Below, one piece after another: positions 3,071 to 33,742 of a DNA stretch of 64,000 nucleotides (position 1 is its first letter; every line of letters starts with the position of its first letter). Origin of the DNA: a virus; the IMG/VR virus record IMGVR_UViG_3300031551_000001, positions 1 through 64,000 of that record, one strand, 5' to 3'. The notes under the pieces are model-generated. The model had not been told where the DNA came from. It ran no database searches and worked only from the letters and a program-made list of their open reading frames with translations. The translations under genes were made by a program, and so were the position numbers.

Positions 3071-3094
3071 AAATTACTTATATAAAGTAGTTAG
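3071..3094 (-). repeat. dispersed 24-bp gene-end site, copy A (CTAACTACTTTATATAAGTAATTT)
   Basis: Overlaps the stop codon of ORF 3091..3393; five further copies in the window. Confidence 0.8.
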
Positions 3095-3393
3095 TAGCTA
3101 GTAAAGAAAAGACTTTCTGGTACTTTAAATTCTTTTCTTTCATCAGTCATAGCGTTTATTACTATAAGCTTGCCTTTTATCTTCTTTACATAATCTTCAA
3201 TGGCTTGTTCTGGACTTTTGCCGGTTCCATAGTCTCCGATAAGCATAATGCCCTCTTTAAGCTCTGCATCTTCAATTTTTGCAATCCATCTACCTTTCTG
3301 GTTTGCATATCTTCGCAATTCTAAATTACTATCAATTGTGTCTAAAAAGGCAAACAGATTAATGCTATGTGTATTTGAAGTTTCGTTTTTCAT
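3091..3393 (-). CDS. hypothetical protein (cassette-like)
   Basis: 100-aa ORF ending in the dispersed site. Confidence 0.7.
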   Translation of the reverse strand: MKNETSNTHSINLFAFLDTIDSNLELRRYANQKGRWIAKIEDAELKEGIMLIGDYGTGKSPEQAIEDYVKKIKGKLIVINAMTDERKEFKVPESLFFTSY

Positions 3394-3435
3394 TTTCAGT
3401 AATTTTTAAATTAGTATATATGGTGTTAATAGACG

Positions 3436-3503
3436 CTCAGATGCACGATCTTTTTAAAGTTGATATAATATACCACTCAAAAATATCGTGTCTCTGAGGG
3501 CTC
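3436..3503. repeat. ATCGTG-family element with 20-bp imperfect inverted arms (candidate strong gyrase site)
   Basis: Arms 3436-3455 and 3479-3498 (3 mismatches); related to 10121-10166 and 11437-11482. Confidence 0.45.
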
Positions 3504-3506
3504 ATT

Positions 3507-3983
3507 TTAGTTATCGCTTGCAGTTATAGTGTTCATATCAGATAAATGTTTACCTTCCCATATTTGCCATCTATTGGTCATGCACAATTTTTTTAAATCT
3601 GATCTTACTTTTTGTTTATATTTTAAAAGCTCACGGGCAATTACATATTGTTCTCTGGCTTTATTATACTCATGAACATCATAAACACTAGCGTTATTAA
3701 AATTACACCATTTATTGGTCATGTTTATTTTTAGTTTACCTACATCATCCATCAATTGTTTTATTTCATGTTTTAATAGTTTCTTATAAGCTATTAAATC
3801 TCTTCTAACTTTTAACCACTTGTTTACACCTCTGGCAAGCATGGAAATTCTTACAATATTAATTTGTTCTTCCGTAAACCCCTCATTTTTAAGGTCATTA
3901 ATAATAAGTTCAGGATGATTTTGCTTATAGTTCCAAATATTAATTGGTGTGACTTTAAAAATATTTTCATTTTTCATCTTCAA
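3507..3983 (-). CDS. hypothetical protein
   Basis: 158-aa ORF, helical/coiled-coil character. Confidence 0.65.
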   Translation of the reverse strand: MKMKNENIFKVTPINIWNYKQNHPELIINDLKNEGFTEEQINIVRISMLARGVNKWLKVRRDLIAYKKLLKHEIKQLMDDVGKLKINMTNKWCNFNNASVYDVHEYNKAREQYVIARELLKYKQKVRSDLKKLCMTNRWQIWEGKHLSDMNTITASDN

Positions 3984-4038
3984 TCATTTTTAGTTTAATA
4001 AGCGAGTGCCCATAAAACAGAGCACTCACCAATATTGT

Positions 4039-5192: not shown

Positions 5193-5705
5193 TCATTTTA
5201 ATAATGTTAGTCCGTAATCAAAGATTTTTATTAGTAATTTTTGTTTTTCAACATGATTAGCAACAGCAGCAGCAGCATAAGTAGCGGCAGTATAAGGAGC
5301 AGCCTCGGCAGCACAAGCAGAATAAGCAGCAGCAGTATTAGAGTAAGTAATATAAGTAATATAAGCAGCATCATTAGCGGCAGCAATAATGTTGTTATTT
5401 TTTTGAGAACCATATTTTAAGCATTTCTCAGCTGCTTCAATTGCTTTTCTTGGTCGCAAATCATCAGGATATTTTTTCTCATAAATAGATAAAACCTGTT
5501 TTGCCGCAAAAACAGCATATCTTATTTTATCTTTATGAGTCATTAATCTCACAATTAACCAATTCCCCCAATCCAAATGTTCTTTGGTTTTAATAAAATG
5601 ATTGATAATATCAATTGGGTTTTTCAGGGGTTGATTTTTGAACCATTGGATCGCTTCCTCACAAGCTCTTTGTTTTTTAAGCCAATTTACTGTTAATGTT
5701 TTCAT
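5193..5705 (-). CDS. Imm5-like domain protein with Ala-rich tract
   Basis: FAAKQVLSIYE..YPDDLRPRKAIEAA motif followed by Ala/Tyr repeats. Confidence 0.7.
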   Translation of the reverse strand: MKTLTVNWLKKQRACEEAIQWFKNQPLKNPIDIINHFIKTKEHLDWGNWLIVRLMTHKDKIRYAVFAAKQVLSIYEKKYPDDLRPRKAIEAAEKCLKYGSQKNNNIIAAANDAAYITYITYSNTAAAYSACAAEAAPYTAATYAAAAVANHVEKQKLLIKIFDYGLTLLK

Positions 5706-6014: not shown

Positions 6015-9000
6015 TTATTCTGTGGCTTTTTTGATTGTTTCTTTAGCTTCTCTTATCATTGAGCTTTCATATTCTAATTTCAGATTGTCAGCAAATTTGA
6101 TAAATCTTTGTAATGCCCTTAACAATTCATTCCTTTGTTCCAGTAATTGGCGGGGAGTTAGATTAGTTTGATTAAATATTGCAATAGATTCAGTTTCAAT
6201 ATTTTCAATCCCACTATCTTTAAAAGTTGTTTCTTCCCATTTTTGCGGATAGAATTTACCGGAAAGTTTATCAAATCTTGTTTCTTCTATTCCGTGTAAT
6301 GGACATTTCATTGTTTCGTATTGGTGGATTCCTTTACTTGCACCACAATAAAAACATACATCTGTTTCGATTTGTGTTTTCATATTCCATATTTTAAGGT
6401 TATCATTATTCTAACAGAGAAATAAATCAATGCAGCTATACAAATAGCCGCGCATAGATAGTCATATTTAGTCCAGATTTTCATTATATTTTTATAAATT
6501 TACATGAAATTAAATCATAATAAGGAATAGAAATCTCAGAATTCGGTATGTTTTCCCCTTGCCAATAGTAACCATCTGTTTTTTTTATAAGGTTTGTTTT
6601 GTGGTTGGTTTTAGAAGAAAAAACAAAACATAAAATGTTTCCAAATCTTCGTTCTGAATATTTATATATTCTATGAACTGATTTTTTAGAATTAATATGT
6701 TTCACAAAGTAATGTGAACCAGTTTGTAAAACTGTTCCATCATTTAATACGTGGTTATTCATAATATTAAAGTTTTAGTTAATAATGTATTGTGCCAGCA
6801 AACAGAAACGATCTGTTACCCCTTATTATTTTGGGGTTGCCTTCATGCTGGCTGAAGATTACCGATATTTATCCCAATTATGTTCTTCTCTCCATTCTTT
6901 TTTATCTAAATCAATAACATAGAGATGTTCAATATCTCCATGTAACCCTGTAGTTGGTTCATAAGCACCACATTTCCAGTCTTTAGGAGATTCTATTGTG
7001 TCTGTGTCTTTCAGGTAACCTTGATCGGTCGCATACTTAGGTATTGTATCATACTCCATAGTGCCTAAAAGAATTAACCAACCGGAAGATTGAGGGATAT
7101 TATTACGAATAATATCCTTCTTAAGCCAACTCACAAATAAATCAAGGGTTGGTTTTACCCCTTCGGGGTATCCATCAGAATGGCGATAAAAATAAAGTTT
7201 TTTTGGTATAGCAAATTCCTTTGATTCGATAATAATATTAGCTCTTGTACTCATAGCATTATAATTTAAGTTAATAATTTACCAACCAATAGGTATAAAA
7301 ATACATAAGATCGTAGTAATCGCAATAGCAAGCGTAAAGACGATAGCTGCTAAAATGTTAGTTTGTTTTTGTAAGGGTGTTTTCATAATAAATCAAATTA
7401 ATGTTTTTAAATATTCAACAACTTTCTCATGTAAAATAACCAGTCTAACACAAGACCTATTATGAATATTATGGCCAGCATAAACATGAAATGATTTTTC
7501 AATAATCATTTTATTTAAAACTTTGTACAAATCAAACGGATTACTGGCTTTTAATTTATTTACAATTTCTTTATATTGACATTTAAAATCGTAATAATAA
7601 GGAGACATATTTTTATTTTTATCACTCATTATCGTTGATGAGTTTATAATAAAACAATTAGGGTGCATACTAATTCGTTTAATTTTCGAATTATCAGGGA
7701 GTTTTCTTATTTTACTATTAATTTTTCTTTTAATAGTTAATAACTCCCATTGTAAATAAAGTATACGATTTTCTACTTGCATGATTTAAAATTTAATAGA
7801 AGTTAATTGTTTCACATTTAATTCTTGCATTGGTGTTCCACATTCCGGGAACCCTTCTTTACATTTATTGAATTTTTCACCACTACCACAAGCACAAAGA
7901 TCAATTCCCCAATTATTAACACAATAATTGCAGTTATCCCAATTATTTTCTTCAGGAACTTTCATGGTAGGGAAATATTTTTTAAATAATTTAACAGGCA
8001 TAGAGTTTTGGACTTCCTCTCCTTTTTCATTTTGATAAAATATAGTAATTGCCCCGCAACTACATTTAAAAATATTAATTTGTGTTTTCATTGTATTGTA
8101 GAATTACATCATTTTTGATACACATCCTTGATAAGTATAATTAGTATGTAATGCTTCGTTTTCTTCTACTTCGAAAACAGCAACATTATTAGTGTCTTCC
8201 TGAAAATGTTTGTAGTACCATGCCTGTTCTGCATTGTCTGCTTGCATATCAATGCCTTCAGGGTCAAAGTTTGTAGCTTTCCACATACGGATAAATTCGT
8301 CTTTGACCTCTTCCAGATTTTCACTTGCAAAAACTTCTTTAGCTATTTGCTGTCCATTTTTGTAAGTTCCAATTTTGTAAATTGTTTGTGGTTTCATAAT
8401 AATATAGTGTTAATATGTGTTTATCCTTCTGTTAAATATTTAATAATTAATTTTTCTGCTATATCCATAGTAACGTTAATATCTTCAGGAGAATATAATA
8501 GCTTATCAAAGAATATTAAATCATTCTCAATTCCCCATTGTAAAAATTTTTCAATTATAAATCCTTCTGGTTCATGTTTTTGAATACATTCAATAATAAA
8601 TGAATTATGCATACATGACACTTTTGACATTTCTTTATATGTTTCCAGCGCGTGCTCTCTTAATTCTTTTAATTTTGTTGTTTTCATTTTATGCGAATAT
8701 AATTTTAATAATTCCAATATTCAATATAAGCTGTTTTGTTGTAATTAATTAAGCCTTTTGCATGCTTTTCATGTTGTACATTCCATAGATATTTAAAAGG
8801 AATATTCAGAGATTCACAAACTCCATAAATAGCATTTTCCGCCCCTCTATGATAATCTTTATTAGAATGTTCCAGCCTCACATAATAAGCCAACCAACTT
8901 AAAGCAATAAACTGCTCATTTGTTAGTGTGTTTTTATAGTCAATTTCCTTTTTCATAATATTAGATTTTAATTATTTGTTATTTTTTTTTTAACTCACCT

Positions 9001-9387
9001 GCTCTTTTATATAATTGACTGGAAATTATAGACAATTCATTTTTAATTTTATAAGACTCTGTACAATCACTTCCAATCAATTCGTTAATTACCGTGCTGG
9101 CAATTTGTAATGCCTCTATTTTAGCTTGTCTTTTATTCATGATTTTTATAAATAGTCCCGTGTTTGACAAAATGTTCAGAAAATGAATTAATCATTTTAG
9201 TTTTTAATTCTTTTAATGTAGGTGCAAATATTTTCTTTTTTTTATCGAATTGTTCACAAACACACACCCATTTATTATTTGTTGATTTGACAACCGACAT
9301 TAAATGAGGAGCCCAAAATTCATTATCATCATTTACAAATGTTGGCGTATAAACATTTAAGTAAATATGTTCTAATTTTATTTTCAT
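6015..9387 (-). other. cluster of small early hypothetical ORFs (6015-6383, 6484-6762, 6859-7254, 7393-7782, 7786-8091, 8104-8397, 8421-8717, 8705-8956, 8979-9170, 9133-9387)
   Basis: Tightly packed co-oriented 60-130 aa ORFs with A-rich leaders; 6859-7254 carries the common phage MSTR..YxHxDGYP motif. Confidence 0.7.
6794..6852 (-). ncRNA. intergenic tRNA-mimic-like three-way structure
   Basis: 7-bp stem GCCAGCA/TGCTGGC stacked on a 5-bp stem with 7-nt loop (AACAG-ATCGTTT-CTGTT), plus an ACCCC/GGGGT arm. Confidence 0.45.
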
Positions 9388-9426
9388 TGTATTAGATTTT
9401 AGTAAAACATTCCTTTTTCTACTGCC

Positions 9427-9491
9427 AAAACCCCTAAACCTGGGGGAGTAGGGGCAACCCTGCCATTACTTACGACAGGATGAAGGCAGGG
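9427..9491 (-). terminator. anti-leader hairpin (9458-9491) followed by intrinsic terminator-like hairpin (9427-9454)
   Basis: CCCTGCC/GGCAGGG stem with 20-nt loop, then CCCCTA/TAGGGG stem followed by TTTT. Confidence 0.6.
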
Positions 9492-9493
9492 AT

Positions 9494-9709
9494 TTATGTT
9501 AATATTTCAATATCTTTCAAGGTTTCAACAACATACTTAAGATTTTTTGTAAAATTTCTCTTCTTAAGCCATTCCCATAATGCGTCATGTTCAAAATCAG
9601 CAATAAACCGCCATAATTGAATAAATTTTGTTTGATTTGTTTGGTTATCTAAAGCACAGGATAATACGTGTTTAAATTCCATGTTTCTAAGTGATTTATA
9701 AGTTTTCAT
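9494..9709 (-). CDS. hypothetical early protein (71 aa)
   Basis: Start moved to MKTYKSL, downstream of the hammerhead. Confidence 0.7.
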   Translation of the reverse strand: MKTYKSLRNMEFKHVLSCALDNQTNQTKFIQLWRFIADFEHDALWEWLKKRNFTKNLKYVVETLKDIEILT

Positions 9710-9727
9710 TGTCGTAAGCGTTAGTTT

Positions 9728-9777
9728 GACATAGACCCCTTCCGGGGTTTCGACCATTCAGGCCTCGTCAGTATGCC
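9728..9777 (-). ncRNA. type I hammerhead ribozyme
   Basis: Minus strand GGCATA-CTGACGA-GGCC-TGAAT-GGTC-GAAA-CCCC-GGAA-GGGG-TC-TATGTC: complete CUGAnGA/GAAA/GUC core with stems I-III; predicted cut between 9734 and 9733. Confidence 0.92.
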
Positions 9778-9782
9778 TGCAA

Positions 9783-9971
9783 TTATTTTAATTCAACATA
9801 TAACCAAAATCCACCAAAGAAGACCATAGTTAAAGTAATACCATAAAATATAGGTAATATAATTTCAGAAGGGATGAAGGTTAAGGCAGGAGCTATTAAT
9901 ATCATTAATATAAATAATATTCCGCTTATAGCCCCCAGATATCCTGTTAATTTAATTAATTTTGCTTTCAT
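9783..9971 (-). CDS. small two-helix membrane protein
   Basis: 62 aa, two hydrophobic segments; first gene after the promoter at 10008-10015. Confidence 0.75.
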   Translation of the reverse strand: MKAKLIKLTGYLGAISGILFILMILIAPALTFIPSEIILPIFYGITLTMVFFGGFWLYVELK

Positions 9972-10007
9972 TTGTCGTAAGTATTAAGTGAGTAATGAAT
10001 CAATAAT

Positions 10008-10015
10008 CAAATATA
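10008..10015 (-). promoter_or_regulatory. Bacteroidota primary-sigma -7 box TATATTTG
   Basis: Matches TAnnTTTG. Same box on the minus strand at 3018, 10692, 14216, 14603, 15784, 17359, 34148 and on the plus strand at 34306, 36282, 41705, 44703, 47976, 51738, each upstream of a gene or structured region. Confidence 0.8.
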
Positions 10016-10120
10016 CAACAATGAACCCCCAAAAGTCAAGTAAAAAGTGAATTATTTTGAGATCGTTCGTTAGAATGGCTAAAAATGGCCTTTATGTGCA
10101 TTTTGGGTGTTTTTGGGCTG

Positions 10121-10166
10121 AGTGAGGGTTTTGTATTACTCGGTACGAGATCGTGCAACAGAGGGC
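10121..10166. repeat. ATCGTG-family element (candidate strong gyrase site)
   Basis: Ungapped alignment with 11437-11482, about 29/46 identical including GAGATCGTGC. Confidence 0.45.
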
Positions 10167-10356
10167 TTTAAAATGAGCTTATTTTGATATATTCACCTTC
10201 ATAATGAGTAAGTGAGCCTAAATTTCACATTTTAGATATAATAAGAAAAGCCAGATAATTAGTCTGGCTTTAATGTTCTTCGTAATCCTCTTTCTTTTGA
10301 GTATACGCCGTAGATTTAGTTTTCCGGATCTCGGCTTTGTAGTTCATATCAGCGGT

Positions 10357-10596
10357 TTATAATTTTGCGAATTCTTTTTGCATTTCATAAAGTTCGGCGG
10401 TCATTTGATCTAATATTTCAGTTTTTATATCTTCATCATTTTTCAGATGAATATATGAATGTATTCCGGGATTTGTGTTGTCGTTAATCCCAAAGGTAAT
10501 ATGATAATTATCAGATTTCAATAAATTAATTTTCTGTGAAAGTTCTTTTATTGAATCTGAAAGACTAAGAGCTTTTGATAAATCTTTTTCAGTCAT
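10357..10596 (-). CDS. hypothetical protein
   Basis: 79-aa ORF downstream of promoter 10692-10699. Confidence 0.65.
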   Translation of the reverse strand: MTEKDLSKALSLSDSIKELSQKINLLKSDNYHITFGINDNTNPGIHSYIHLKNDEDIKTEILDQMTAELYEMQKEFAKL

Positions 10597-11319
10597 TGTT
10601 TTAATTTTAAGTTAAAATTATATCTATCTTATTTGATTTGTAAAAAGTATTGACGAACTAATCGAATTCATTATACTTTCAAAGAACATAACAAATATAA
10701 AACAAATATTTTAAACTACAAAATAATTAATATATTTTTTGTCCAGTTTTTACTGGTAAAAACAAGACATTCTATAAGAGTGTGTTTGCTACGAGTAAAA
10801 TTATCTAAGCGGACAAGTTATACTGACAGCAAACCAAGGAAAAAAGAACTCTAAAACATTCATTCTATAACTTACATTATAACAATGACTTACAACAGTA
10901 AAATCTTGACATCTCATTCTTGACGTGTACTACTAATACTATAACAAACACAACAATAATATATAAAGTTTTGAAGTGTAAAGTTGTGGTAAACCCCCGA
11001 AGGGGGTTGAATAGTGAGGATTAAAGAACCAGGAAAGGAGTGAAGGTGAAGTAAGGAGGAGTATGAAAAGAGTGGGTTGGGGAATGAGGGGAGGAAATGA
11101 ATAAAGAAAAGGTGGGGAATAAATAAGGGGTTTGGGGTGCTGATTTATGCAAATAATTTACTGTTCGTATTTTTACGAACAACTCCTTGCTTTTTACTTT
11201 TATTCTCCTTATATTTACCGAAACAAGCCAAGGTTTATACACGCAGAACAACCTAACGGTATACATCTTAACATATATAGATAACTCCATACTCTTATCC
11301 TGCTTGCGTTACAGAAGTT

Positions 11320-11347
11320 TAGTCTGATAACTTGTATTATGTTAAAT
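11320..11347 (+). other. dif-like XerC/XerD recombination site
   Basis: TAGTCTGATAA-CTTGTA-TTATGTTAAAT: 11-6-11 layout, XerD arm identical to E. coli dif. Confidence 0.85.
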
Positions 11348-11436
11348 AGACCAGCTCAAAACACACCCAACACAGGACCACCAACACCATACAGCACATT
11401 ATATCAAAACAAAGCCTCACACAGTTTTACCCCTCA

Positions 11437-11482
11437 AGTGATACCTCTATACCACTCACCTTGAGATCGTGCGTCAGCGGTC
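11437..11482. repeat. ATCGTG-family element (candidate strong gyrase site)
   Basis: Shares TATACCACTCA and ATCGTG with 3436-3503 and spacing with 10121-10166. Confidence 0.45.
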
Positions 11483-11800
11483 TCATAACAGCCATATTCA
11501 CTATTAATTTTGATAGGTCTGTTGCCTTTGATTAGGACAGCATAATAAGGATGAAATGTTATGATCCTGTGTGACCTTTTGGTGTATTATGATGTTTGCG
11601 GTTATGCAGATCTCATTAATGTACCTGGGTGTGCGAATGTGCCGGATCGACGGGGGGTGGTTAGCAAAATTGGGCTTTCCCGGTGGGGTGATACCCCCGT
11701 ATAATTACATATTATTTGGAAGCTCTACCCCTCCCACCAATACTCCATCACTTAGACCACCAATTCCCCTCCTTCCCCACCCTTTTCTTTGTACACATTT

Positions 11801-11824
11801 GAGTTATTAATACAAAGTAGTTAG
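11801..11824 (-). repeat. dispersed 24-bp gene-end site, copy B (CTAACTACTTTGTATTAATAACTC)
   Basis: 17 nt after the stop of ORF 11842..12123. Confidence 0.7.
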
Positions 11825-11841
11825 CGTCATTTACTAACGCA

Positions 11842-12123
11842 CTATTTAAACCGAAAATGTTTATTCCAAATTTCCTCATCCATATCATCATTCCATCCTT
11901 GTATTGATTTTTCGTGCCTAAATTCAGCTTCCTCGTCTCCAATTTCATAAGGCAGTACATTTCTACGCTCTTCAAATTCTAAATCTTCCTGATCACATCC
12001 GAAGCATAAATCATTTTCTTTGGACAGGTATTTTGTTTGCACTCCACACCTAATACATTCACCTTCATATAAATGAAAATTTGGGTCAACTTTCTTTGCT
12101 TTTTGTCTTTCTTTATTTGTCAT
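11842..12123 (-). CDS. hypothetical protein with CxxC..CxxC
   Basis: Start moved to MTNKERQ, coupled to the stop of the upstream gene. Confidence 0.65.
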   Translation of the reverse strand: MTNKERQKAKKVDPNFHLYEGECIRCGVQTKYLSKENDLCFGCDQEDLEFEERRNVLPYEIGDEEAEFRHEKSIQGWNDDMDEEIWNKHFRFK

Positions 12124-12719: not shown

Positions 12720-12786
12720 TATAATATTAGGTTTGTTGCTTTTTATATTGTTTTTTGTATATTATTAGAAATAGGAGTTAGTTTTA

Positions 12787-12837
12787 TTTTGCCAGTCAAA
12801 TGGAATATGTTATGAATTCTTAATGTAAAGTAGTTAG
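12787..12837 (-). repeat. dispersed gene-end site, copy C, within a 51-bp direct repeat
   Basis: 45/51 identical to 13102-13152; core CTAACTACTTTACATTAAGAATTC at 12814-12837. Confidence 0.85.
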
Positions 12838-12845
12838 GCGTAATG

Positions 12846-13070
12846 CTACGGATTACATTCTTCTTCATCTATCCAAAATGTTTTATCATCAAACTTTGCA
12901 ATCTTGGCAGTTCCTACTGTACTAAATTGGTATTCAACAGAAAATGACCTCATAGGGCAAACAACGTCAGGATCTTTACATCTAACATTTTCTTGGTAAA
13001 AATCCCAAACCCTTTCTATTTGTTTATCTGTCATTTTCATTTCCTGTATAAAATATTCTTTATTTGTCAT
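12846..13070 (-). CDS. hypothetical protein (cassette-like)
   Basis: 74-aa ORF between repeat copies D and C. Confidence 0.7.
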   Translation of the reverse strand: MTNKEYFIQEMKMTDKQIERVWDFYQENVRCKDPDVVCPMRSFSVEYQFSTVGTAKIAKFDDKTFWIDEEECNP

Positions 13071-13101
13071 AATTATATTCTATTTATATTGTTCTTTTTT
13101 G

Positions 13102-15048: not shown

Positions 15049-15084
15049 ACAATATTTTAAGTTAATTTAATATAGTTATAGTGT

Positions 15085-24699: not shown

Positions 24700-25378
24700 C
24701 TGGGTACAAATTTTTAACCAAATCACTTTGCCAAAATTCTTTAGTATCTATATTTATTAAGGTTAATTTCCCTTCCCATCCAGCACCTTGATCAATATTC
24801 CATAAATTACGAATATGTACAGGACTTAAATCACTTTTAGTTCTTGATGTTGTTGTGTGACCAATATAAATTTCATCATAATCTTTTACCTCAAAAATAG
24901 GAGAAAATAGATAAGACCAAAATAAATCTCTGTCCCATGTTAAATCATATATAGATTGCTTAGAAATATCCTTCACTAAAGAAAAACCTCCATGAACAAA
25001 CAATTTATTATCTTTTGTTATATAATAAGGTTTCGCATTCTCAAGAAATTTCTCATGTTTTTGTTCATAATTTGAATCTTGTACTCTATAATAAGCATTT
25101 AAAGTGGCTTCTCCTCCTTGGGACGTCCATATTCTTGGTTTATTATAAGTTTTGAAATAATCCAGCAACCACCGATCATGATTTCCTAAAATATAAATTA
25201 GATTTTTAAACTTCATAAGTTCTTCAAAACATTCAGGAACTTGGCTCCATCCATCAGCTACATCCCCCAAGCTTATTAATAAATCATTATCGTAATCTAT
25301 CCCTGATTTTTCAATAACCTGCATTAGCGCTTTATATGCACCATGAATATCTCCCAAACAAAATCTTTTTATTTCCAT
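24683..25378 (-). CDS. calcineurin-like metallophosphoesterase (lambda NinI-like)
   Basis: GDIHG, GDVAD, GNHD, FVHGG, GHT. Confidence 0.9.
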   Translation of the reverse strand: MEIKRFCLGDIHGAYKALMQVIEKSGIDYDNDLLISLGDVADGWSQVPECFEELMKFKNLIYILGNHDRWLLDYFKTYNKPRIWTSQGGEATLNAYYRVQDSNYEQKHEKFLENAKPYYITKDNKLFVHGGFSLVKDISKQSIYDLTWDRDLFWSYLFSPIFEVKDYDEIYIGHTTTSRTKSDLSPVHIRNLWNIDQGAGWEGKLTLINIDTKEFWQSDLVKNLYPDEKGR

Positions 25379-26355
25379 ATTGTAGGTAAATTTTTATATA
25401 CCTCTATGTTCGTAAATTCTTTCGATTCTTCAATTTCCTGAGTATTTGCCCATTCAACCATTTTGTTAATTCCGTCCCATATCTGTGTTTTATTTATAGA
25501 AGGAAAATGCTTCTTGATCTTATCAATAGAACAATATGCATTATGCACTTCATTTCTTGCTTTAACATGCATTATTTGTTGATGAGACCCCATAGCACGC
25601 TTTACCATTTCTGCTATATCGTTTACAGAATATGTCTTTTCTGCTCCTATGTTAAAAGTTTTATTATACATTTCAGGTTTAAAAGCAGATTGAGCTATTT
25701 TAGGGGCTATGTCCCCTATAAATGAAAATGCTCTTGTCTGAGTGCCGTCTCCGAACACGGTCAATGGCTTATCAGAAAGAATTTGATTAATAAAAATACC
25801 AAGAACATTTCTATATTTATCGTTGAGTCGTTGTCTTGGCCCGTAAATATTGTATGGGCGAAAGATAATGTAATCAAGACCAAACATTTTATTGGCTGCT
25901 ATTATATCAAGTTCTGTGGCATATTTAGCTATACCGTATGGGTCTATGGGTTGTGGTTGTGTTTCTTCTGTAAACGGTGGTTCTGCATCTCCATAACAAG
26001 CTATTGAACTAAAAAAGATAAGTTTTGCTTCATGTTTTATGCATTCATTGATAATATTCATAGAACCTACTACATTGTTGGTATAATTGAAATTGCGTAT
26101 AAAATGAGAGAGCCCTTCGGCAGCATAAGCAGCCAAATGAAATACATATTCGAATTTATAGTCTACGAACATCCAGCTCATTTGCCTTTTGTCATTGACT
26201 GTCATCTGGTAAAAATGAGACTTCCTGTTTATATTGTTCGTGCTTCCCCCGCTTAAATTATCCACGACATAAACATCATGTTTGAGATTTATGAGTTCGT
26301 CAACTATATGAGAACCAATAAACCCTAAACCTCCGGTTACAAGTATATTACTCAT
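25369..26355 (-). CDS. NAD-dependent nucleotide-sugar epimerase/dehydratase
   Basis: TGGLGFIG, HLAA, catalytic YGIAK, NIYGP. Confidence 0.93.
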   Translation of the reverse strand: MSNILVTGGLGFIGSHIVDELINLKHDVYVVDNLSGGSTNNINRKSHFYQMTVNDKRQMSWMFVDYKFEYVFHLAAYAAEGLSHFIRNFNYTNNVVGSMNIINECIKHEAKLIFFSSIACYGDAEPPFTEETQPQPIDPYGIAKYATELDIIAANKMFGLDYIIFRPYNIYGPRQRLNDKYRNVLGIFINQILSDKPLTVFGDGTQTRAFSFIGDIAPKIAQSAFKPEMYNKTFNIGAEKTYSVNDIAEMVKRAMGSHQQIMHVKARNEVHNAYCSIDKIKKHFPSINKTQIWDGINKMVEWANTQEIEESKEFTNIEVYKNLPTIWK

Positions 26356-26525
26356 TTTCTAATTATTTTAGGTTTATAAACCAAGAATAATTTATCACAA
26401 TAAACACACCTAGAATAAATACAACCACTCCACACATCCATTTCCCATGTAAGTTTTGGTTTGTGAAAACCAAATAAACATTTAATCTTTCTAAACATTT
26501 TGGTTTTAAATCATCAATACCACTA

Positions 26526-26708
26526 TCAATATTTTTTAATGTCTTCATGAATAGTTTCATCTATGCTCTCTAAATATTCATCATATAAACCCTCACTTAA
26601 ACCTTCGCTAAAAAGAGCAAAACCAACATCCAAAATATTCAATACCCGATCTTTATTGAGATGTTTTTCGGTGAACTGCTTCATTATATAGTAGCTATTC
26701 CAATGCAT
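26526..26708 (-). pseudogene. N-terminal fragment of a class I methyltransferase fused to an unrelated tail
   Basis: MHWNSY..M..F...LNILDVG stops resembling the fold right after motif I. Confidence 0.5.
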
Positions 26709-27108
26709 TTTTTCTTAATAATTCTAAATTTTCGTAAATATTTCCAATTATTTCAATATCTTTAATCGAATATAATTCTGTAAAATTAAATTCATTTCCA
26801 TATAACGTATCGTTAGGTTTTCCCCTAAATGCCCCATTTTTGAAAATAATACTCCATACAGAATTTACCATTTTAGAAGCGTCATTCTGAACAATATCAC
26901 CTTCATAAATCTCTTTGCCTTGACGATCATGTAATCCAGTAAATTGCATTAAAATTGCATGTTTATTAGTAGGATAATTTTTATTTGGAGTTTCTTTTAT
27001 TGGCCATATTCTTAAAAAAGACTCATCTGGCATTTGCATAATAGTTTGTACAAATACCATTCTTTTTTCATTTATTAGCCATGCCCTGAATTTAATTTCT
27101 CTATTCAT
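26695..27108 (-). CDS. YopX-family protein
   Basis: MNREIKFRAW, LMQFTGLHD..GKEIYEGDI, IIGNIYEN. Confidence 0.92.
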   Translation of the reverse strand: MNREIKFRAWLINEKRMVFVQTIMQMPDESFLRIWPIKETPNKNYPTNKHAILMQFTGLHDRQGKEIYEGDIVQNDASKMVNSVWSIIFKNGAFRGKPNDTLYGNEFNFTELYSIKDIEIIGNIYENLELLRKNALE

Positions 27109-27907
27109 ATCTTGATTTTTTTTTAAAGTTTTTCACAATCCATGTTTTTAAAGGATAATCAGGCTTGCCCCAATACAAACCTGTATCGTTAAAATTCAAC
27201 CATGTTTTCCCGGCTATAGCAACCTCTATATCCTTATAGGTGTCCTGTTTAAAACACGTGGTTCTGTTCTCATAAAAACCCTCGAACCCAACTTTATAAT
27301 CATTCTCCTCCACCAATGGTTTTCCTGAATACTCATCAGGATAAAGATTAAAATATAGTGTGGCAAGAGAATATGGCCGTGCCTGTTCCCAAAACTTATA
27401 TTCATTGAACATTTGTTTCAATAAGTCTTTCTTATAAATTAAAGGGAGATGATGTTCAAAGCTGTATTTTGCTTTATGGAGAATATATGCTTGGTTAGTG
27501 GTTTTCCCATTATGAGAAGACTGGTTTACTTTAAATAGTTTATTTGTATAGTGTAGCCAAGGTACGTTCTTTATCCCCGTTTTATCTATTTGTTTAAGAA
27601 GAATAATATCATCATATATATAACAAAACTCTTTTGGGCATTGTTCTGAATTGACGTATGTATAAACCTTATTCAAAACATCAAAATAATTTTCAAACGG
27701 CCTGTGTCCGTTGTTGATTTTTAATAACCTTTCAGGATAAAATCTTTCTATTTGTTCTGAATATCCTTTGTACCATTCAGGGGTAGTGGTTGAATAAAGA
27801 ACTACATCAAATTCATCCATAAAATTAGCCTGTAAGGATCTGAGCATATATTTAAGCTCATTATTCCCCCACAGACTATTAATTCCTAATGGAACAAAAA
27901 ATATCAT
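27101..27907 (-). CDS. Stealth-CR2-like/GT-A-like protein
   Basis: NELKYMLRSL resembles ELRYSLRS; YDD, HLP, LNFND. Confidence 0.5.
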   Translation of the reverse strand: MIFFVPLGINSLWGNNELKYMLRSLQANFMDEFDVVLYSTTTPEWYKGYSEQIERFYPERLLKINNGHRPFENYFDVLNKVYTYVNSEQCPKEFCYIYDDIILLKQIDKTGIKNVPWLHYTNKLFKVNQSSHNGKTTNQAYILHKAKYSFEHHLPLIYKKDLLKQMFNEYKFWEQARPYSLATLYFNLYPDEYSGKPLVEENDYKVGFEGFYENRTTCFKQDTYKDIEVAIAGKTWLNFNDTGLYWGKPDYPLKTWIVKNFKKKSRYE

Positions 27908-28386
27908 ATCAAATTGAATATAACTATTATAAGCATCCCACAAAGTCCAACTCCAAAAACTAATATTGTTTCTATGATTACGATTATTTTAAAAATATCG
28001 CATCCTTTTAAGTAATAAGATTTGTCATTAAAAATCTGATCAAATACGAACATTTTTAGAAATCCTGTGCCAATCAGAGATATAAGTGACACGATTAAAA
28101 TAAGTTTGAATATTTCGAACATAGCTTTAAAATTTAAGGTTCCAAAGTTAATAATTACTCCATCATTGCCTTTCCCAATGACAAGAGTGTAAACATAAAA
28201 GAATTGTACTCCAAACTACCAACAATTATCACACACGGTATATATAGCGGTAAATACAGAGTATACACTAAAAGTATAATGATAAAACCTATAAATCTAA
28301 TAATTAAATTCATTATTATTAGTATCATTGTTGTCAGGTTTAACCTGACTTATTTACTATGATAAATAAATATATTTCTACACAAT

Positions 28387-28944
28387 CTAAATAGCGTTGG
28401 TAATTTGTTTTGTCGTTGGAGTCCACATGTCTTGTTTCCCACCTTTATGTTCATCTACCCATTTTTTCAGATAATTACAAACACCATTAAACCAATCTAC
28501 CTGAGATTTAGTAGTTACTTTCATTGAAGCATATTTACCTGCTCTAGCATCTTTCATGTATTCTTTAATTTCCCCGGTAAGTCTTACTCTTGGAAGATAT
28601 AACCAATAAGGCTCTAAACATATAGATAATTTATCTGCTGCACAAAGTTTAGAGGGATTAACATTGTCTTTTTTTGCATAAAATCTTGAGTGATATTTAG
28701 ACAAATTAGCCCATCTTTCCCCAAATACAGACATAATTTTCGCACCAAATTCCACGTGAGATTCTCCTTCTTCTCCATCCATATTTGGCTTACCAACATA
28801 ACCCAAATCATGCACAAAAAACAATAGCCATAATCTTGGATCAAAAGGAAATCCATAGAGTTTCCACCAAGCTATAAACACAAACACAGGATGAATAAAA
28901 AAACAATGAGCACCAAACAACACTGATTTAGTTCCTACTTTCAT
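28387..28944 (-). CDS. HD-like conserved phage protein
   Basis: HP, VHDLGY, H, YHSRFY, ADKL. Confidence 0.6.
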   Translation of the reverse strand: MKVGTKSVLFGAHCFFIHPVFVFIAWWKLYGFPFDPRLWLLFFVHDLGYVGKPNMDGEEGESHVEFGAKIMSVFGERWANLSKYHSRFYAKKDNVNPSKLCAADKLSICLEPYWLYLPRVRLTGEIKEYMKDARAGKYASMKVTTKSQVDWFNGVCNYLKKWVDEHKGGKQDMWTPTTKQITNAI

Positions 28945-29037
28945 AATTAATATTGTTAGTGTTAGATTTTAATTTATTGTTATTATCCCATGATAAATAA
29001 AGATGTTGAAGATATATTATGCGATTGATTGTTTCCA

Positions 29038-29304
29038 TTATATATAGTTTGTCAATAAATTAAGTATGTCGTGTATCATCTGTTCTTCCTCCCTGACCTC
29101 CGCTTTAATCATATAAAGATAAAATTTAACATAAGACACTTTAAGCCCTTTTGCTATAGACTCTACCATTTTAAGTGTTGGAATTCGGGTGTTCGTTTCA
29201 ATTAAGCACAGATAAGATTTCCCAATACCAGCTCTTCTCGCCAGTGTTTTTTGGCTAATTTTTTGTGCTCTTCTGAGGTCTCTTATAGCCGTTCCGATTT
29301 CCAT
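29038..29304 (-). CDS. XRE-family HTH regulator
   Basis: IRDLRRAQKISQKTLARRAGIGKSYLCLIE..PTL. Confidence 0.9.
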   Translation of the reverse strand: MEIGTAIRDLRRAQKISQKTLARRAGIGKSYLCLIETNTRIPTLKMVESIAKGLKVSYVKFYLYMIKAEVREEEQMIHDILNLLTNYI

Positions 29305-29614
29305 TTCCGTTTCTTAAAAGAACAGTTAGCTTATCAAAAGATATGTTTGGGATGCCTATAATACTTTAGAAGCTTCCACCGTAAAGTTATGCAGGACAAC
29401 AGACGGATCAATGTTCTGCCTGTTTAATTCCTGCAAATCATCCTCACTCCAACACCCAAGCTCAAATTTGGTGGCCGGAGGTCCGCCCTTAAAATATTCA
29501 GCGGGTAAAGGACGGCTTATTAAGTAAGCCTTTACTAAACAATCCCTTAATGTTCCTATGTCTATATGTTTCTTTTTTGCCTTCATGGGCAAAAGTGTTA
29601 GTAACAATGCAAAT

Positions 29615-29968
29615 TTAGTAATAATAATTTTGATTAAATGTTGTGTCTGGATAAAAAGAAATGGTATCTACCGCAATAATCTTCCACACAGAATCTGGCA
29701 TTACAAAAAGAGAATCATATAATTCATGAAAAGAAGTATCTACCTCAATACTATCAAGAATAACATTCTCTACATCATTTTCAAATGATGCTCTTTCAAT
29801 AAATGCCAAGGCATCATTTTTATTAGTAAATATTGCTTCGTGATTACATTCATTTATTGTATATGTATCATAATTCCATTTAATTATTCTATCAAATTCA
29901 TCGAGTTCACAAAACGGAATTCCTTGATGTGTTATAACTAAACACCACGTTACTATATATTTCCACAT
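29615..29968 (-). CDS. small protein rich in D-S/T-x sequons
   Basis: Short hydrophobic N-terminus; DSI, DSL, DSV, DTI, DTT in the last ~47 aa. Confidence 0.65.
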   Translation of the reverse strand: MWKYIVTWCLVITHQGIPFCELDEFDRIIKWNYDTYTINECNHEAIFTNKNDALAFIERASFENDVENVILDSIEVDTSFHELYDSLFVMPDSVWKIIAVDTISFYPDTTFNQNYYY

Positions 29969-29969
29969 A

Positions 29970-30236
29970 TCAAACTCCTTTCTTCCCAAAATATGGTCTC
30001 CAAAAAGGCATGTCCCTGGGCGGTATCATTATGGTCTTTTTGTTTCTCATGTCGTGTGCCGGACGGGGGTTTCTGTGTTTTATAATAAATCTTCCGAATC
30101 TGGAAATATGTACTTCAATTTTATTCTCAAGATTCTTTTTGATCTCACCAAAGGTAACATTGACAATAAGGTCTACCGTTTCTTTGTCAACTCCGGTTTG
30201 TTTTGCTACGTTTTTTACTAATTTTAATGTGTTCAT
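29970..30236 (-). CDS. HU/IHF-family DNA-binding protein
   Basis: LVKNVAKQTG, VHISRFGRF, RNPR..D......IPPR..P.WRP. Confidence 0.9.
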   Translation of the reverse strand: MNTLKLVKNVAKQTGVDKETVDLIVNVTFGEIKKNLENKIEVHISRFGRFIIKHRNPRPAHDMRNKKTIMIPPRDMPFWRPYFGKKGV

Positions 30237-30246
30237 ATCGTTAATT

Positions 30247-30666
30247 TCATCTGATTAATACTCTTCCTATGTCGCCCCAAGGCCTATAATATTGATTGTT
30301 GAATATTCTACTTGTAAGTTCTCTTTTGAGGGATTGATTTCTTTTTTGAGATGGAAACTGAAAAAGAAAATCTTTTTCTATATTACTCACTTTCCTGTTA
30401 AAATCTTTTTCTGTGTCTGATAAATTTTTATATGTTTTTAACCCGTTTATAATAGCTGCGTGATCTCTCTTATTAAAAATACGAGCTATATTGATTTTTG
30501 AGACATTAAGGTGATTAAATAAATTATGCCAAATAACAAATCTTCCAATAGGGATATTCCCTTCCCTTGATTTTGAAAACAACTCATCCTTTGTTACATC
30601 AAAATCCTCGCACACACGATTAATTAACCACACCAGCCTTCTTTTATTTGCAAAAGATAAATTCAC
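30247..30666 (-). CDS. stand-alone DnaA C-terminal (domain IV)-like HTH protein
   Basis: VCEDFDVTKDELFSKSR..IPIGR, IARIFNKRDHAAIING. Confidence 0.8.
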   Translation of the reverse strand: MNLSFANKRRLVWLINRVCEDFDVTKDELFSKSREGNIPIGRFVIWHNLFNHLNVSKINIARIFNKRDHAAIINGLKTYKNLSDTEKDFNRKVSNIEKDFLFQFPSQKRNQSLKRELTSRIFNNQYYRPWGDIGRVLIR

Positions 30667-31199
30667 AATTTTATTATTTGTACCTGTCCTCTTACAGCTT
30701 GTTTAAATGCTTTACTTACGTTAATGGCTCTTATAAGGTCTGTTCCGTTAAGTGGTATTTTTCCAGACAAAAGGGAAGATGTCATGAGACTCCCAATAGC
30801 CTCTGCGTGGCCTACTCCTATTGAAGCGTATGGAAGCTCACAAGACAAGACAGTAAAATTATTATCAATCTCAAAAATCTTTTTGCCTGTGTTTATTAAT
30901 ATATTCCACAATCCATCAAGCGTAGATACCACATCATTATCCCTTAAATGATCAATAAAATTAGTATACACAGAATCTTCATCAATCAAATCTTTTGCGA
31001 TAGGATTAAATGATGTTTCATTGATCATTTTTCTTAGTTCGTGGATTATTATTGTTTTACCGGCAACACCAATTAAGATGTCTTTGTGTTGGAATATCTT
31101 CTTGTAATTTGTTCTGTAAACATTATCGCCATCATAATAATATGAATCAGAAGCCATCCACGACCCCTTACTCGATATAATTGTTGCTACTGCGCTCAT
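30663..31199 (-). CDS. HslV/proteasome-like Ntn-fold protein
   Basis: MSAVA..MASDS..KKIF..IGVAG..YASIGVG..AIGSL. Confidence 0.7.
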   Translation of the reverse strand: MSAVATIISSKGSWMASDSYYYDGDNVYRTNYKKIFQHKDILIGVAGKTIIIHELRKMINETSFNPIAKDLIDEDSVYTNFIDHLRDNDVVSTLDGLWNILINTGKKIFEIDNNFTVLSCELPYASIGVGHAEAIGSLMTSSLLSGKIPLNGTDLIRAINVSKAFKQAVRGQVQIIKL

Positions 31200-32094
31200 T
31201 TTTTATTATTTTATTAATATTTTCTGCACTTATTCTAAATCCAGCAGCCCCCTTATGACCACCACCCCCTAGGCTTTTAGCTATAATAGAACAATCAGCT
31301 TTTCCATTATCATTATATAAACTAAAATTATATGTTCCATTTGCATAATGGAAACAAGCCGCCCCATCATATCCGTCTTTATGATAATTTATGCCAAAAT
31401 TTATGGGATTAAAACGTTCTTTATTTACACAAATAAATTTCCTAACAGTGGTAATATTATTTTCTATTAATTCTACAAATTCTATAGGAAATCCATTTTT
31501 ATATGATTGCTTCGCCTCTGTACATAAGTATTTATAAATTTCTTTTCCAGATGAAATCATTCTATCAGTTAAAAATGATTCTTTTATACTTTTTTCAAGC
31601 CATTTATAACATTCGTCAACATTACTTATGTTAGCTCGGGCAGCATATTGAAATTCTAATACCTTTTGTTCTTCATTGGTTCCTTTGTGCCTAAAGCAAT
31701 CATATCTACCGAGTAAACGAACAAATTCTGGCATTGGTTCTTTAGGGAAACAATAATCCCAAGTAAGTTCACATGCGGCAAATTTATTGTCTAGATAATT
31801 AATACAAAAAGATTCTCCATCTCCAATAAATTTCTTATAATCATCAATAGCTGATTTATGGTGATCAATCCATATAAATTGCCATCCAGATCCTTTTGCA
31901 TATTTTTCCATTATCTCAATTGGAAATGAAACGTCAACCATAACAATTTTTTCGTTTTCAGGAATATTAGGAAATTCATCTCCATAATTCCATCCAAACA
32001 ATTTAAGATCAATTTCTTTTTCTTTACACCATTTTTTTACGATAGCAGCGCTACACCAACCATCTAAATCTATTGAATGATAAATACAATACAT
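31168..32094 (-). CDS. DHH/DHHA1 phosphoesterase
   Basis: YHSIDLDG, MVDVSF, WIDHH, GGGGHKGAAG. Confidence 0.92.
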   Translation of the reverse strand: MYCIYHSIDLDGWCSAAIVKKWCKEKEIDLKLFGWNYGDEFPNIPENEKIVMVDVSFPIEIMEKYAKGSGWQFIWIDHHKSAIDDYKKFIGDGESFCINYLDNKFAACELTWDYCFPKEPMPEFVRLLGRYDCFRHKGTNEEQKVLEFQYAARANISNVDECYKWLEKSIKESFLTDRMISSGKEIYKYLCTEAKQSYKNGFPIEFVELIENNITTVRKFICVNKERFNPINFGINYHKDGYDGAACFHYANGTYNFSLYNDNGKADCSIIAKSLGGGGHKGAAGFRISAENINKIIKNERSSNNYIE

Positions 32095-32575
32095 AATTTT
32101 AATGTTTTATGAGTGCTTAATTAAGAATGTTCCAATTTCAAGACATTGTTCTTTGGGAATTGTAATTTGAATAACAACATCTCCATTATCATTTTCTATC
32201 CAACTGGCCTTGTCAAGAGTAAAAGTGTGTCCTTCTTTTGAAGTTCCTTTAAGAATATTCTTTTCAATTTCTCTTTCTGTTTCTTCTATTATATCCTCAG
32301 TAGATTGGCCGTCAGAAGGAATGTCACTGTATAGTGGTTCTTTGATATTCGATGTAAATGGCGGAGGGTTGACGCTTTCTTTTGTCGGCTCAACAGGCGA
32401 TAATTTACCTGCCTTTTTAAGTTTACTTCCAATTTTTAATAAGTCTTTCATATAAAGTTTCCGTTAGTTTCAAAAACAAAGTACTGAAATATATTTTTAA
32501 TAAACAAATATTTTTGATGAAAAATTAATAAAATAGTTGTGCAAATATTTTTTCATGTGAATATTTTTTCATAAT

Positions 32576-32632
32576 ATTGTCAACGGACGAATATAAATTG
32601 TCGTTTTAATGTAATTTATACCTTGTTAGCTG
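32576..32632 (+). other. attC-like imperfect hairpin upstream of the methyltransferase
   Basis: GTCAAC-GGACGAA-TATAAATTG...TAATTTATA-CCTT-GTTAGCTG. Confidence 0.65.
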
Positions 32633-33723
32633 ACTGGTGTGGATAATTTAGTACAAACTTTAATAAAAGAACGAATGATAGTAAAAGAAAAAAAAGGAGG
32701 GTGTTTTTTTGACTTAATACAAGGAGATTGTTCTATTGAAAACGAATATATAAAAGATGGTAGTGTTGACCTTATTTTAACTGATTTGCCTTATGGTACT
32801 GTAAAGGGTATGGGTGGAGATATGGCGAAATATAAACACCTAAGTAATGCAAGTTGGGACGTTGTTATACCTACCGAAAAGATAATGCAGATTGCAAACA
32901 GAATACTTAGGAAAAACGGCAAAATGGTATTGACCGCAAACCAACCGTTTACAACTGAGCTAATAAGTAAGCAGATACCTAACTTGCCACATTGCTATAA
33001 TATGTATTGGGATAAAATGCACTTTGCAAATTGTTTGGTTGCAAACAAAGCTCCAGTAAGCTACATGGAGGATATTTTGGTTTTTAGTAAAGATTATGAC
33101 TTTGAAAACTTGCACCCACTTAGAGAATACTTTAGTAATGTACTTTCTTTTATTGGGCTTAAAAAGAAAACCATAATTGAAACAATAGGGCAAAGGGCAG
33201 ACCATGTATTTAGGGTGAAAAGTTCGCAATTTGAATTATGCAAAAAAGAAACATATTTGGCTTTGATTGCTGAATATAGGATTAACAATATGGATGACTT
33301 TTTAAATTATACGGAACTTGAAAACATAAACGAAAAATACACAAGCACTTTTAATCTATGGGAAGGAAACAAACACAAAAGCAATATACTTAAATACAAA
33401 AAGGATTATGATGGGCTCCATCCAACACAAAAGCCTGTATTATTGCTTGAAGATTTGATTAAGACTTTTAGCAATAAAAACGACTTAGTTGTTGATTTGA
33501 CAATGGGAAGCGGAAGTACTGGTGTAGCTTGTAAGAATACCAAACGTAACTTTATAGGAATTGAAAAAGACGAGAAGTATTTTGATATAGCAGTAAACCG
33601 AATTAAAATTATTGAACCAAAACCCCAACAACTTTGAAAAAGTTGAAGCGGGCTGGCTTTTTTCTTTTACGGATGAACCATATAACCTTGATTAAGTGAA
33701 CGAATGTAGTGCTTGCAGCTAAC
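32585..33723 (+). mobile_element. putative integron-type gene cassette carrying a DNA methyltransferase
   Basis: Bounded by AAC at both junctions; GTTAGCTG (32625-32632) is complementary to CAGCTAAC (33716-33723); opposite strand to the resident genes. Confidence 0.6.
32639..33637 (+). CDS. N4/N6 DNA methyltransferase (beta class)
   Basis: LILTDLPY (DPPY variant), HPTQKP, DLTMGSGSTG, IGIEKD. Confidence 0.92.
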   Translation: MDNLVQTLIKERMIVKEKKGGCFFDLIQGDCSIENEYIKDGSVDLILTDLPYGTVKGMGGDMAKYKHLSNASWDVVIPTEKIMQIANRILRKNGKMVLTANQPFTTELISKQIPNLPHCYNMYWDKMHFANCLVANKAPVSYMEDILVFSKDYDFENLHPLREYFSNVLSFIGLKKKTIIETIGQRADHVFRVKSSQFELCKKETYLALIAEYRINNMDDFLNYTELENINEKYTSTFNLWEGNKHKSNILKYKKDYDGLHPTQKPVLLLEDLIKTFSNKNDLVVDLTMGSGSTGVACKNTKRNFIGIEKDEKYFDIAVNRIKIIEPKPQQL

Positions 33724-33742
33724 TACTTTATATAAACAATTC
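33719..33742 (+). repeat. dispersed gene-end site, copy F (CTAACTACTTTATATAAACAATTC)
   Basis: 81 nt after the methyltransferase stop; strand follows the gene. Confidence 0.85.

Follow-up and report, generated by a model that had tools for sequence, protein, structure and literature searches.

Phages of the T4 type carry repeated intergenic cassettes known as PeSLs, which are described as beginning at the stop codon of the upstream gene, flanking ORFans, and mediating insertions, deletions, and replacements by recombination; among the reported cases is a flanked gene that is replaced by one chimeric cassette in a relative (PMC2839356; PMC4122927). Intergenic repeats of 29 and 58 bp are also described in the halovirus HF2, where they carry promoters (PMC8707807). 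In this work, we analyzed the first 64 kb (hereafter the window) of an 81,885-bp virus record (IMGVR_UViG_3300031551_000001; the whole genome is labeled G000), in which a 24-bp motif recurs at the ends of genes. A preliminary description of the window had interpreted these copies as landing pads for integron-like gene cassettes. Our results suggest that the motif is probably a PeSL-like intergenic punctuation signal that also provides short homology for the shuffling of gene modules, and not an integron-like capture site.

Motif copies and the gene junctions they occupy

All six copies reported earlier for the window were recovered. Five of these fit the 24-mer with zero to three mismatches, namely, 3071-3094 (CTAACTACTTTATATAAGTAATTT), 12814-12837 (CTAACTACTTTACATTAAGAATTC), 13129-13152 (the exact consensus), and 14642-14665 (CTAATTACTTTACATAAACAATTC) on the minus strand, and 33719-33742, the only copy on the plus strand; 100 shuffles gave no match to the 24-mer. 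The sixth (11801-11824, minus strand; CTAACTACTTTGTATTAATAACTC) has one mismatch to the 15-base core. Minus-strand copies are named here by the 5' end of the motif, i.e., 3094, 11824, 12837, 13152, 14665, and, outside the window, 75453. When the whole 81,885-bp genome was scanned with a weight matrix, the six window copies scored 31-38, and two weaker copies were found outside the window (75430-75453 and 78688-78711, minus strand; scores of 20.4 and 24.9). The corresponding control with five shuffled genomes had a top score of 14.8 and at most one match above 12. All eight copies are co-directional with the local genes. Elsewhere in the genome, runs shared with the motif on either strand reach 10-13 bases at most, and no other dispersed family of this kind was seen in the first 36.5 kb (the motif is repeat family D2).

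The conserved stretch is about 28 nt long (24-28) and consists of a very constant block, (C)TAACTACTTTAYAT, followed by four variable letters (WARN), AAYTC, and AWAA. The motif sequence is free of G. Copies 13152 and 12837 form the left and right members, respectively, of a 56-nt direct repeat (13097-13152 and 12782-12837; 88% identical). Literature searches found no such motif described in Bacteroidota phages, in a coverage that did not extend to the lists of middle-promoter motifs of the crAss-like phage phi14:2 (10.1101/2020.03.07.982082).

The exact 24-mer has no match in the viral contigs searched, and a degenerate 22-mer scan of these contigs identified a sole relative (G001), which is 35.9 kb long and 90-99% identical to G000 over the aligned parts. 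Among metagenome contigs (L-numbered), the degenerate scan returned 32 with a match. Eight of these have 359-6187 nt of further homology to G000; in another three, the part in common with G000 or with each other is the motif plus a short leader only. The remaining 21 are unrelated single-copy matches and were set aside before all junction counts. G000 and its relatives provide a dataset of 25 junction instances with 22 distinct upstream contexts. Nine of the 21 unrelated contigs (L013, L015, L022, L027, L034, L035, L038, L039, and L043) have a longer common block ending CATCAAACTACTTTACATAAA; each carries one copy, and they are not of this phage.

The junctions show where the motif sits relative to genes. 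The upstream open reading frame (ORF) terminates with the TAA of motif positions 2-4 in 10 of the 25 junctions, including those of copies 3094 (100-aa ORF, 3091-3393) and 14665 (128-aa ORF, 14662-15048). The TAA of positions 15-17 serves as the stop in two junctions that involve one gene, the 123-aa ORF upstream of copy 13152. In another nine junctions, the stop lies 3-17 nt before the motif, as in copies 12837 (8 nt past the stop of a 74-aa ORF) and 11824 (17 nt past the stop of ORF 11842-12192). The upstream ORF therefore ends inside the motif or at most 17 nt away in 21 of the 25 junctions, which agrees with the earlier statement that the site lies at or just after the 3' end of a small gene and follows its strand. 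Distances of 26, 39, and 81 nt were observed in three junctions, and in one no upstream ORF was found. The 81-nt case is copy 33719, and the gene upstream is not small, as it encodes a 332-aa DNA methyltransferase (phrog_67; 32639-33637, plus strand). The small ORFs that adjoin the copies have no Pfam match.

On the downstream side, the next ORF starts 2, 3, 13, 13, 26, 26, 26, 28, 36, 52, 58, 67, 74, 82, 94, and 94 nt after the motif in 16 junctions, and in the other nine it is further away or past the contig end. At the tightest junctions, the motif makes up the whole intergenic space. In L032, three consecutive single-gene units are split by motif copies at 5730, 6052, and 6371. The abrupt start of conservation at CTAAC, pointed out in the preliminary description, was seen in all contexts, with every upstream flank different; it arises because different coding sequences end there.

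Module exchange among relatives

As had been proposed, relatives differ in the gene modules that meet at the motif. In G001, the segment 32589-33718 with the methyltransferase gene is replaced by 425 nt that carry an unrelated 108-aa gene, and homology restarts at the motif. The 74-aa gene (12846-13070, minus strand), which has a motif copy on each side, is absent from L029, where one chimeric copy is found. The 128-aa gene (minus strand) is present in some strains and absent from others, and a contig of run X4 (X numbers denote other salt-marsh runs) joins 14665 to 15053. Among the contigs of four such runs, we found the joints 14665-15053 and 13150-15039, as well as loose ends at 11823 and 14660; in all 24 runs that cover window positions 10800-15200, the contigs derive from salt-marsh DNA. 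In runs X3-X6, contigs are lacking for parts of this stretch, and we base no conclusion on these gaps. The flanks are also re-paired on both sides. L033-336 and L041-442 have the same upstream gene with different downstream modules, while a common downstream leader follows different upstream genes in L012, L041, and G001. Likewise, copy 14665, L030-2486, L036, and L042 have one downstream leader behind different upstream genes.

Among 78 homology breakpoints between G000 and its relatives, six lie within 10 nt of a motif copy, compared with about 0.34 expected, and all six are at the 5' edge of the motif. The other 72 are away from any copy, for example, a clean one-gene indel that runs from start codon to start codon (28314-29038) and a mid-gene breakpoint between L030 and L032. 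The pentamers CTAAC/GTTAG were rejected as general breakpoints, since outside motif copies they are near only 3 of the 72, compared with about 1.9 of 78 random places. Mosaicism without the motif is seen in window positions 18010-32094, a region of glycosylation and nucleotide-sugar genes that has many breakpoints relative to G001 and no motif copy; one example is a replacement between 23369 and 24613.

Natural recombinants allow the crossovers to be placed within the junctions. L029 has the upstream flank and motif letters of the 13152 type, followed by 12837-type sequence from about 10-14 nt past the motif. L032-6371 is the reciprocal form, with 12837-type motif letters and 13152-type downstream sequence. 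L033-336 has T at position 13 together with the upstream flank of L041, yet its downstream leader is otherwise paired with C13. L029-2165 and copy 11824 have their downstream sequence in common but differ at five motif letters. In these four cases, the crossovers span motif position 13 to 14 nt beyond the motif. The expectation that relatives would contain differently filled alleles is thus borne out, with homology from the first bases of the motif, but the crossovers are not at the AAC where they had been predicted. Their scatter over the common 24-56 nt is as expected for homologous exchange between short repeats.

These patterns suggest a scenario in which the motif would be a portable signal of this phage lineage, placed between the stop of one small-gene module and the next leader and oriented along transcription. 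Since many junctions share one sequence, homology is available to general recombination; repetition of the motif would supply 24-56 bp of it to the general recombination machinery, and exchange within this common homology would delete, insert, and re-pair modules.

Candidate roles and rival explanations

The record ends repeat each other with few mismatches (window 1-200 and G000 81686-81885), and the genome, though labeled linear and 90% complete, is probably complete, with either circular permutation or terminal redundancy. From about 32.4 kb the genes point leftward and from 32.6 kb rightward, and the sign of the GC skew flips there. Large virion proteins, the portal, and the large terminase (TerL) are encoded in the rightward arm. 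TerL has only 24% identity to the terminases of Flavobacterium, Cellulophaga, Tenacibaculum, and Maribacter phages, of which the Flavobacterium ones are podoviruses. A near-identity search of a phage collection found nothing, and no close cultured relative is available. These distant hits, together with promoter-like TTG-N17-22-TAnnTTTG patterns before small genes, point to a member of Bacteroidota as the probable host. Promoters of the Bacteroidota type have the consensus -33 TTTG/-7 TAnnTTTG.

Promoter-like patterns follow several copies. A host-type pattern, TTTG-N23-TATATTTG (3018-3052, minus strand), starts 19 nt past copy 3094, and another, TTTG-N17-TATCTTTG (14603-14631, minus strand), starts 11 nt past copy 14665. 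Copy 13152 is followed by a promoter-like leader with TTGACA-N20-TATAAA (13083-13114, minus strand), and copy 12837 by a TTTGAC box only. L029 also has the piece 13073-13122, there in the absence of the motif, and breakpoints recur at 13122. Two promoter patterns directly after a motif copy correspond to the layout of a composite regulatory cassette. Because the patterns follow the motif separately, and because the leader of 13152 also occurs without it, the motif is not the host promoter of these units. Elsewhere in the same arm, host-type promoter-like patterns and hairpin-plus-T terminators exist apart from the motif.

The compact unit 14216-14631 (minus strand) after copy 14665 comprises the promoter pattern at 14603-14631, an ORF for a very basic 46-aa protein (14260-14400), an intrinsic terminator (14249-14277), and a second promoter pattern (14216-14247). 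The motif holds the place that is taken by the terminator at 14249-14277. However, a plain terminator is unlikely, as the next ATG is only 2-13 nt past the motif in five junctions. Beyond copy 33719, a hairpin (GGATGTTTTGCATCC; 33864-33886) with T-runs on both strands lies within a 98-bp block (33816-33913) between converging transcription units. This block is 97% conserved in G001, where both flanks are different, and its hairpin is likely a two-way terminator that closes the unit after copy 33719.

Beyond the repetition, the orientation, the anchoring at gene ends, the re-assortment of flanks, and the crossovers at several positions, all of which are observed in the sequences, the motif may act as a phage-specific promoter, as a site where RNA is processed or 3' ends form, or as a protein site that depends on orientation. 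Tentatively, we place first a promoter that would be read with a phage factor and start transcription within the motif. RNA processing or 3'-end formation, in which the upstream stem would protect the new 3' end, is a possibility that we place second. An orientation-dependent roadblock or operator for a protein would be a doubtful assignment, and a motif with no role beyond homology appears unlikely.

Several observations weigh against the punctuation-signal explanation or against parts of it. The motif is without the host-type -33 TTTG/-7 TAnnTTTG pattern; its TACTTTAY fits only six of eight positions, and there is no TTG box upstream. A sigma factor (PF04542) was not found in the genome. A T7-type RNA polymerase (PF00940) was not found either, a weak negative, as the control for this search matched nowhere. 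No gene lies behind copy 33719, and there is no ORF between this copy and the hairpin at about 33866. Most copies also differ from PeSLs in having no stem-loop; where a helix is present, it is long-range (loops of 55-155 nt) and ends at position 5. Six of the eight sites in G000 fold no better than shuffles (z-scores of +1.4 to -0.5). Moreover, the helix at position 5 is not predicted by plain homologous recombination, and it singles out the AAC|TAC boundary.

With regard to other proteins of the phage, no DFDxD motif was found in any of the six frames. DYDGD in the 466-aa ORF 63351-64751 was considered as a catalytic motif and rejected because it is not conserved among 13 aligned homologues. 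The 466-, 1121-, and 1630-aa proteins of the virion module have no PDB, Pfam, or PHROG match, and a protein atlas gave a weak lead to a crAss cargo family (26% of members, row of rank 15, score of 0.90).

The helix deserves separate consideration. In 4 of the 22 contexts (copy 75453, G001, L012, and L033-336, which equals L041-442), the 12-nt stretch whose last base is position 5 has a pairing partner 77-176 nt upstream, with a score of at least 11/12 that random anchors reach in 0.57% of cases. These helices are perfect stems of 10-13 bp without extra-helical bases, and their loops of 55-155 nt hold coding sequence. When helices of this long-range type are counted over all 22 contexts, four or five have one, and a few more have short local hairpins. 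The 3' arm ends only at positions 4-6, and the variant first letters ATAAC, CCAAC, and CTATC (positions 1, 2, and 4) are compensated in the partner box. Two helices are lengthened by G-U pairs in the sense strand only, and the CTAAT of copy 14665 would also give a G-U pair. Compared with shuffles, the folds have z-scores of -6.1 in L012, -5.9 in G001, and -3.4 in copy 75453. In L012 (oriented), positions 130-214 form an 82-nt three-way-junction fold (z-score of -6.1), apparently non-coding, of which the 13-bp closing helix ends at position 5; this structured element has no second copy in any sequence examined and no Rfam match.

The helix fits best an RNA structure that would close exactly where the G-free tract starts. 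This points to a rival explanation in which the motif would punctuate messages at the RNA level: an endoribonuclease would cut, or transcription would end, in the G-free tract, the helix would serve as a protective 3' stem, and the downstream message would start inside the motif. The restriction of helix ends to positions 4-6, the compensated letters at positions 1, 2, and 4, the sense-only G-U pairs with which CTAAT of copy 14665 is compatible, and the strong folds of L012, G001, and copy 75453 are all consistent with it. Cleavage, unlike termination, is compatible with an ATG 2-13 nt past the motif. The same arm also has a hammerhead-like core between two small genes, recognized by eye only, and the phage may therefore already cut its early transcripts. 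However, the helix is confined to four or five of the 22 contexts, and no Rfam family matches. As the whole account of the motif, RNA-level punctuation is unlikely, and it overlaps with the PeSL-like signal proposed above and does not exclude it.

Several RNA-related observations were made in the same searches. The hammerhead-like core (9728-9777, minus strand; CTGACGAG, stem, CGAAAC, stem, GTC) has no Rfam match at E <= 1, and the possibility that it supplies trans-acting arms or an antisense partner for the motif was rejected, since it has its own arms. No Rfam family reached its gathering score in the window, and none matched at E <= 1 in 9000-15200. In the loci of five relatives, the best match (E = 0.096) was under the family cut-off. 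No tRNA was found. After copy 11824, about 11383-11800 (minus strand) is G-rich and contributes to about 510 nt without an ORF of at least 35 codons; L029 and L032 retain this stretch with 89-93% conservation, and no Rfam family matches it. Seven tandem 15-nt units, coding and GCAGCA-rich (repeat family D1), were found at 5250-5389 (minus strand) inside ORF 5193-5705.

A further reading, which we regard as rather improbable, takes the AAC|TAC boundary as a precise cutting or joining point. It could be a new type of transcript-punctuation site, in which the variable helix and the G-free tract may be recognized by an undescribed nuclease or may terminate an undescribed polymerase. Alternatively, it could be the site of an unrecognized recombinase that reads a folded strand, the geometry of which may be mirror-inverted relative to attC.

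A stoperator-like operator is somewhat less probable still. A phage protein bound to the asymmetric site would block or modulate the elongating RNA polymerase at gene ends, like the repressor of the L5 type. The sites are indeed asymmetric, lie in short intergenic spaces at stops, and are all oriented along transcription, which fits the published description (PMC9283540). However, neither an integrase nor any other sign of lysogeny was found, and no protein emerged as a candidate repressor. Stoperators are 13 bp long, compared with 24-28 bp for the site here, none of the copies overlaps an obvious early promoter, and the anchored helix has no place in this model.

We consider the integron-like capture of the preliminary description very unlikely. 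It held that the conserved part is half of an attI-like site, and that circular cassettes with an attC-like hairpin were inserted at the AAC by a tyrosine recombinase supplied in trans. The idea had a precedent, as virulent phages are reported to carry clusters of attC sites that lack an integrase, with methyltransferase cassettes and a Polaribacter phage among the examples (PMC9892861). It is also compatible with alleles that begin to differ at the first bases of the motif and with the 10-13 bp inverted repeat that ends exactly at position 5 in 4 of the 22 contexts. Both box pairs quoted in its support exist (GTTAGCTG at 32625 with CAGCTAAC at 33716, and GTTAGCACCC at 14977, minus strand, with GGGTGCTAAT at 14661), but each is within chance when taken alone. 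The best 10-mer matches in the 1.5 kb upstream are 8/10 and 9/10, levels that random anchors reach in 51 and 11% of cases, respectively. A stronger form of this inverted-repeat feature is significant in other copies (the four contexts above), not in the quoted examples.

Other evidence does not agree with this mechanism. A search for PF00589 gave no match at E <= 1 in the 81,885-bp genome, while the control matched in 14 of 14 genomes. Among 185,579 prokaryote species genomes (596 Gb), the degenerate 22-mer has five single matches only, one in Flavobacterium and four in Clostridia, Bacilli, or a metagenome-assembled genome; the prediction that the 24-mer would accompany IntI genes in Bacteroidota genomes found no support in these counts, which do not include an inspection of the flanks for IntI. 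The crossover lies 3' of position 13 in at least four recombinants, most breakpoints (72 of 78) are elsewhere, and the CTAAC/GTTAG pentamer alone is no breakpoint hot spot. The inverted repeat is missing from 18 of the 22 contexts, and its left partner box is away from the left boundary of the module. Polarity is also at odds with an integron. The boxes of attC are arranged as RYYYAAC ... GTTRRRY. In the helices found here, the outermost bases are GTT on the 5' side and AAC on the 3' side, and the perfect stem without extra-helical bases encloses the 3' part of the upstream gene in linear DNA. This geometry is the mirror of attC and needs no circle; in a circle, the loop of G001 would go from 128 to about 276 nt.

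The remaining idea, that the motif is the target or end of the IS200/IS605 elements (TnpA/TnpB) of the phage, can be dismissed. The genome has a full element, located outside the window, and one with TnpB only, about 575 nt downstream of copy 33719, and both are mobile among relatives. However, their ends are hairpins of different sequence finishing GGGTAGTTYAC, comparison of filled with empty sites places the insertions at unrelated AT-rich targets (one inside a small ORF), and no motif copy is at an IS boundary, such that the junction sequences already contradict any relation.

These elements have features of their own. The TnpB-only element (33913-35449; tnpB at 34318-35442, plus strand) encodes Cas12f1-like TNB and OrfB_IS605 domains, and its right-end hairpin finishes GGGTAGTTTAC. 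In G001, a 90%-identical tnpB is located between the equivalents of window positions 23050 and 23061, and G001 has two more pieces that resemble the right end; this indicates that the element moves within the lineage. The complete element (G000 72744-74885; L008 8744-10885) has hairpin ends and encodes TnpA (Y1_Tnp; 72800-73336, minus strand) and TnpB (73619-74887, plus strand). It is missing from L023 and L041, and these empty sites indicate that it was inserted inside a small ORF starting MKYDEY.

Comparison with known systems

Integron attC sites resemble the motif in being located at the 3' end of cassette genes, in some GTT/AAC inverted repeats, and in having a methyltransferase among the variable genes (PMC9892861). 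They differ in that the polarity of the helix is mirrored here, the helix is absent from most copies, the crossovers vary, and no IntI was found; the conserved part here is a single-stranded G-free tract, not a hairpin. As the natural recombinants illustrate, a sharp edge of conservation at a stop codon can mimic a site-specific "landing pad", and integron-like readings of such motifs need crossover mapping, a recombinase, and hairpin polarity.

The stoperators of cluster A mycobacteriophages are likewise described as asymmetric sites at gene ends that run along transcription, with many per genome (PMC9283540). By the same description, they are 13 bp long and bound by the known immunity repressor of a temperate phage, whereas neither a repressor nor a lysogeny module was found here. 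The repeats of HF2 share with the motif that they are short, repeated, intergenic, and at the head of transcription units; they differ in being demonstrated promoters of an archaeal virus, with positions that are conserved and not shuffled.

By analogy, the PeSL cassettes of T4-type phages are the closest known system. Differences are found in length (24-28 bp here, about 100 bp in PeSLs), in number (8 copies per genome here, about 50 there), and in the promoter, as the motif has no recognizable host promoter consensus and such patterns follow 11-19 nt after copies 3094, 13152, and 14665. The phage is also unrelated to the T4 type, given the 24% identity of its TerL to those of Flavobacterium podoviruses. 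The position-5 helix may mark an undescribed form of RNA-end formation in phages whose hosts lack Shine-Dalgarno-led translation. Because it is shorter, without a host promoter consensus, and mostly without a stem-loop, we describe the motif as PeSL-like and do not count it as a member. The likenesses extend to the arrangement and to the evolutionary outcome. In both systems, a repeated intergenic cassette begins at the upstream stop codon in variable regions of small genes (ORFans), close relatives differ by deletion, insertion, and replacement at the cassettes through homologous recombination, and a gene between two copies can give way to one chimeric copy, as in L029. With this comparison, a podovirus-type salt-marsh phage that likely infects Bacteroidota joins the phages in which small accessory genes are shuffled at a repeated regulatory linker.

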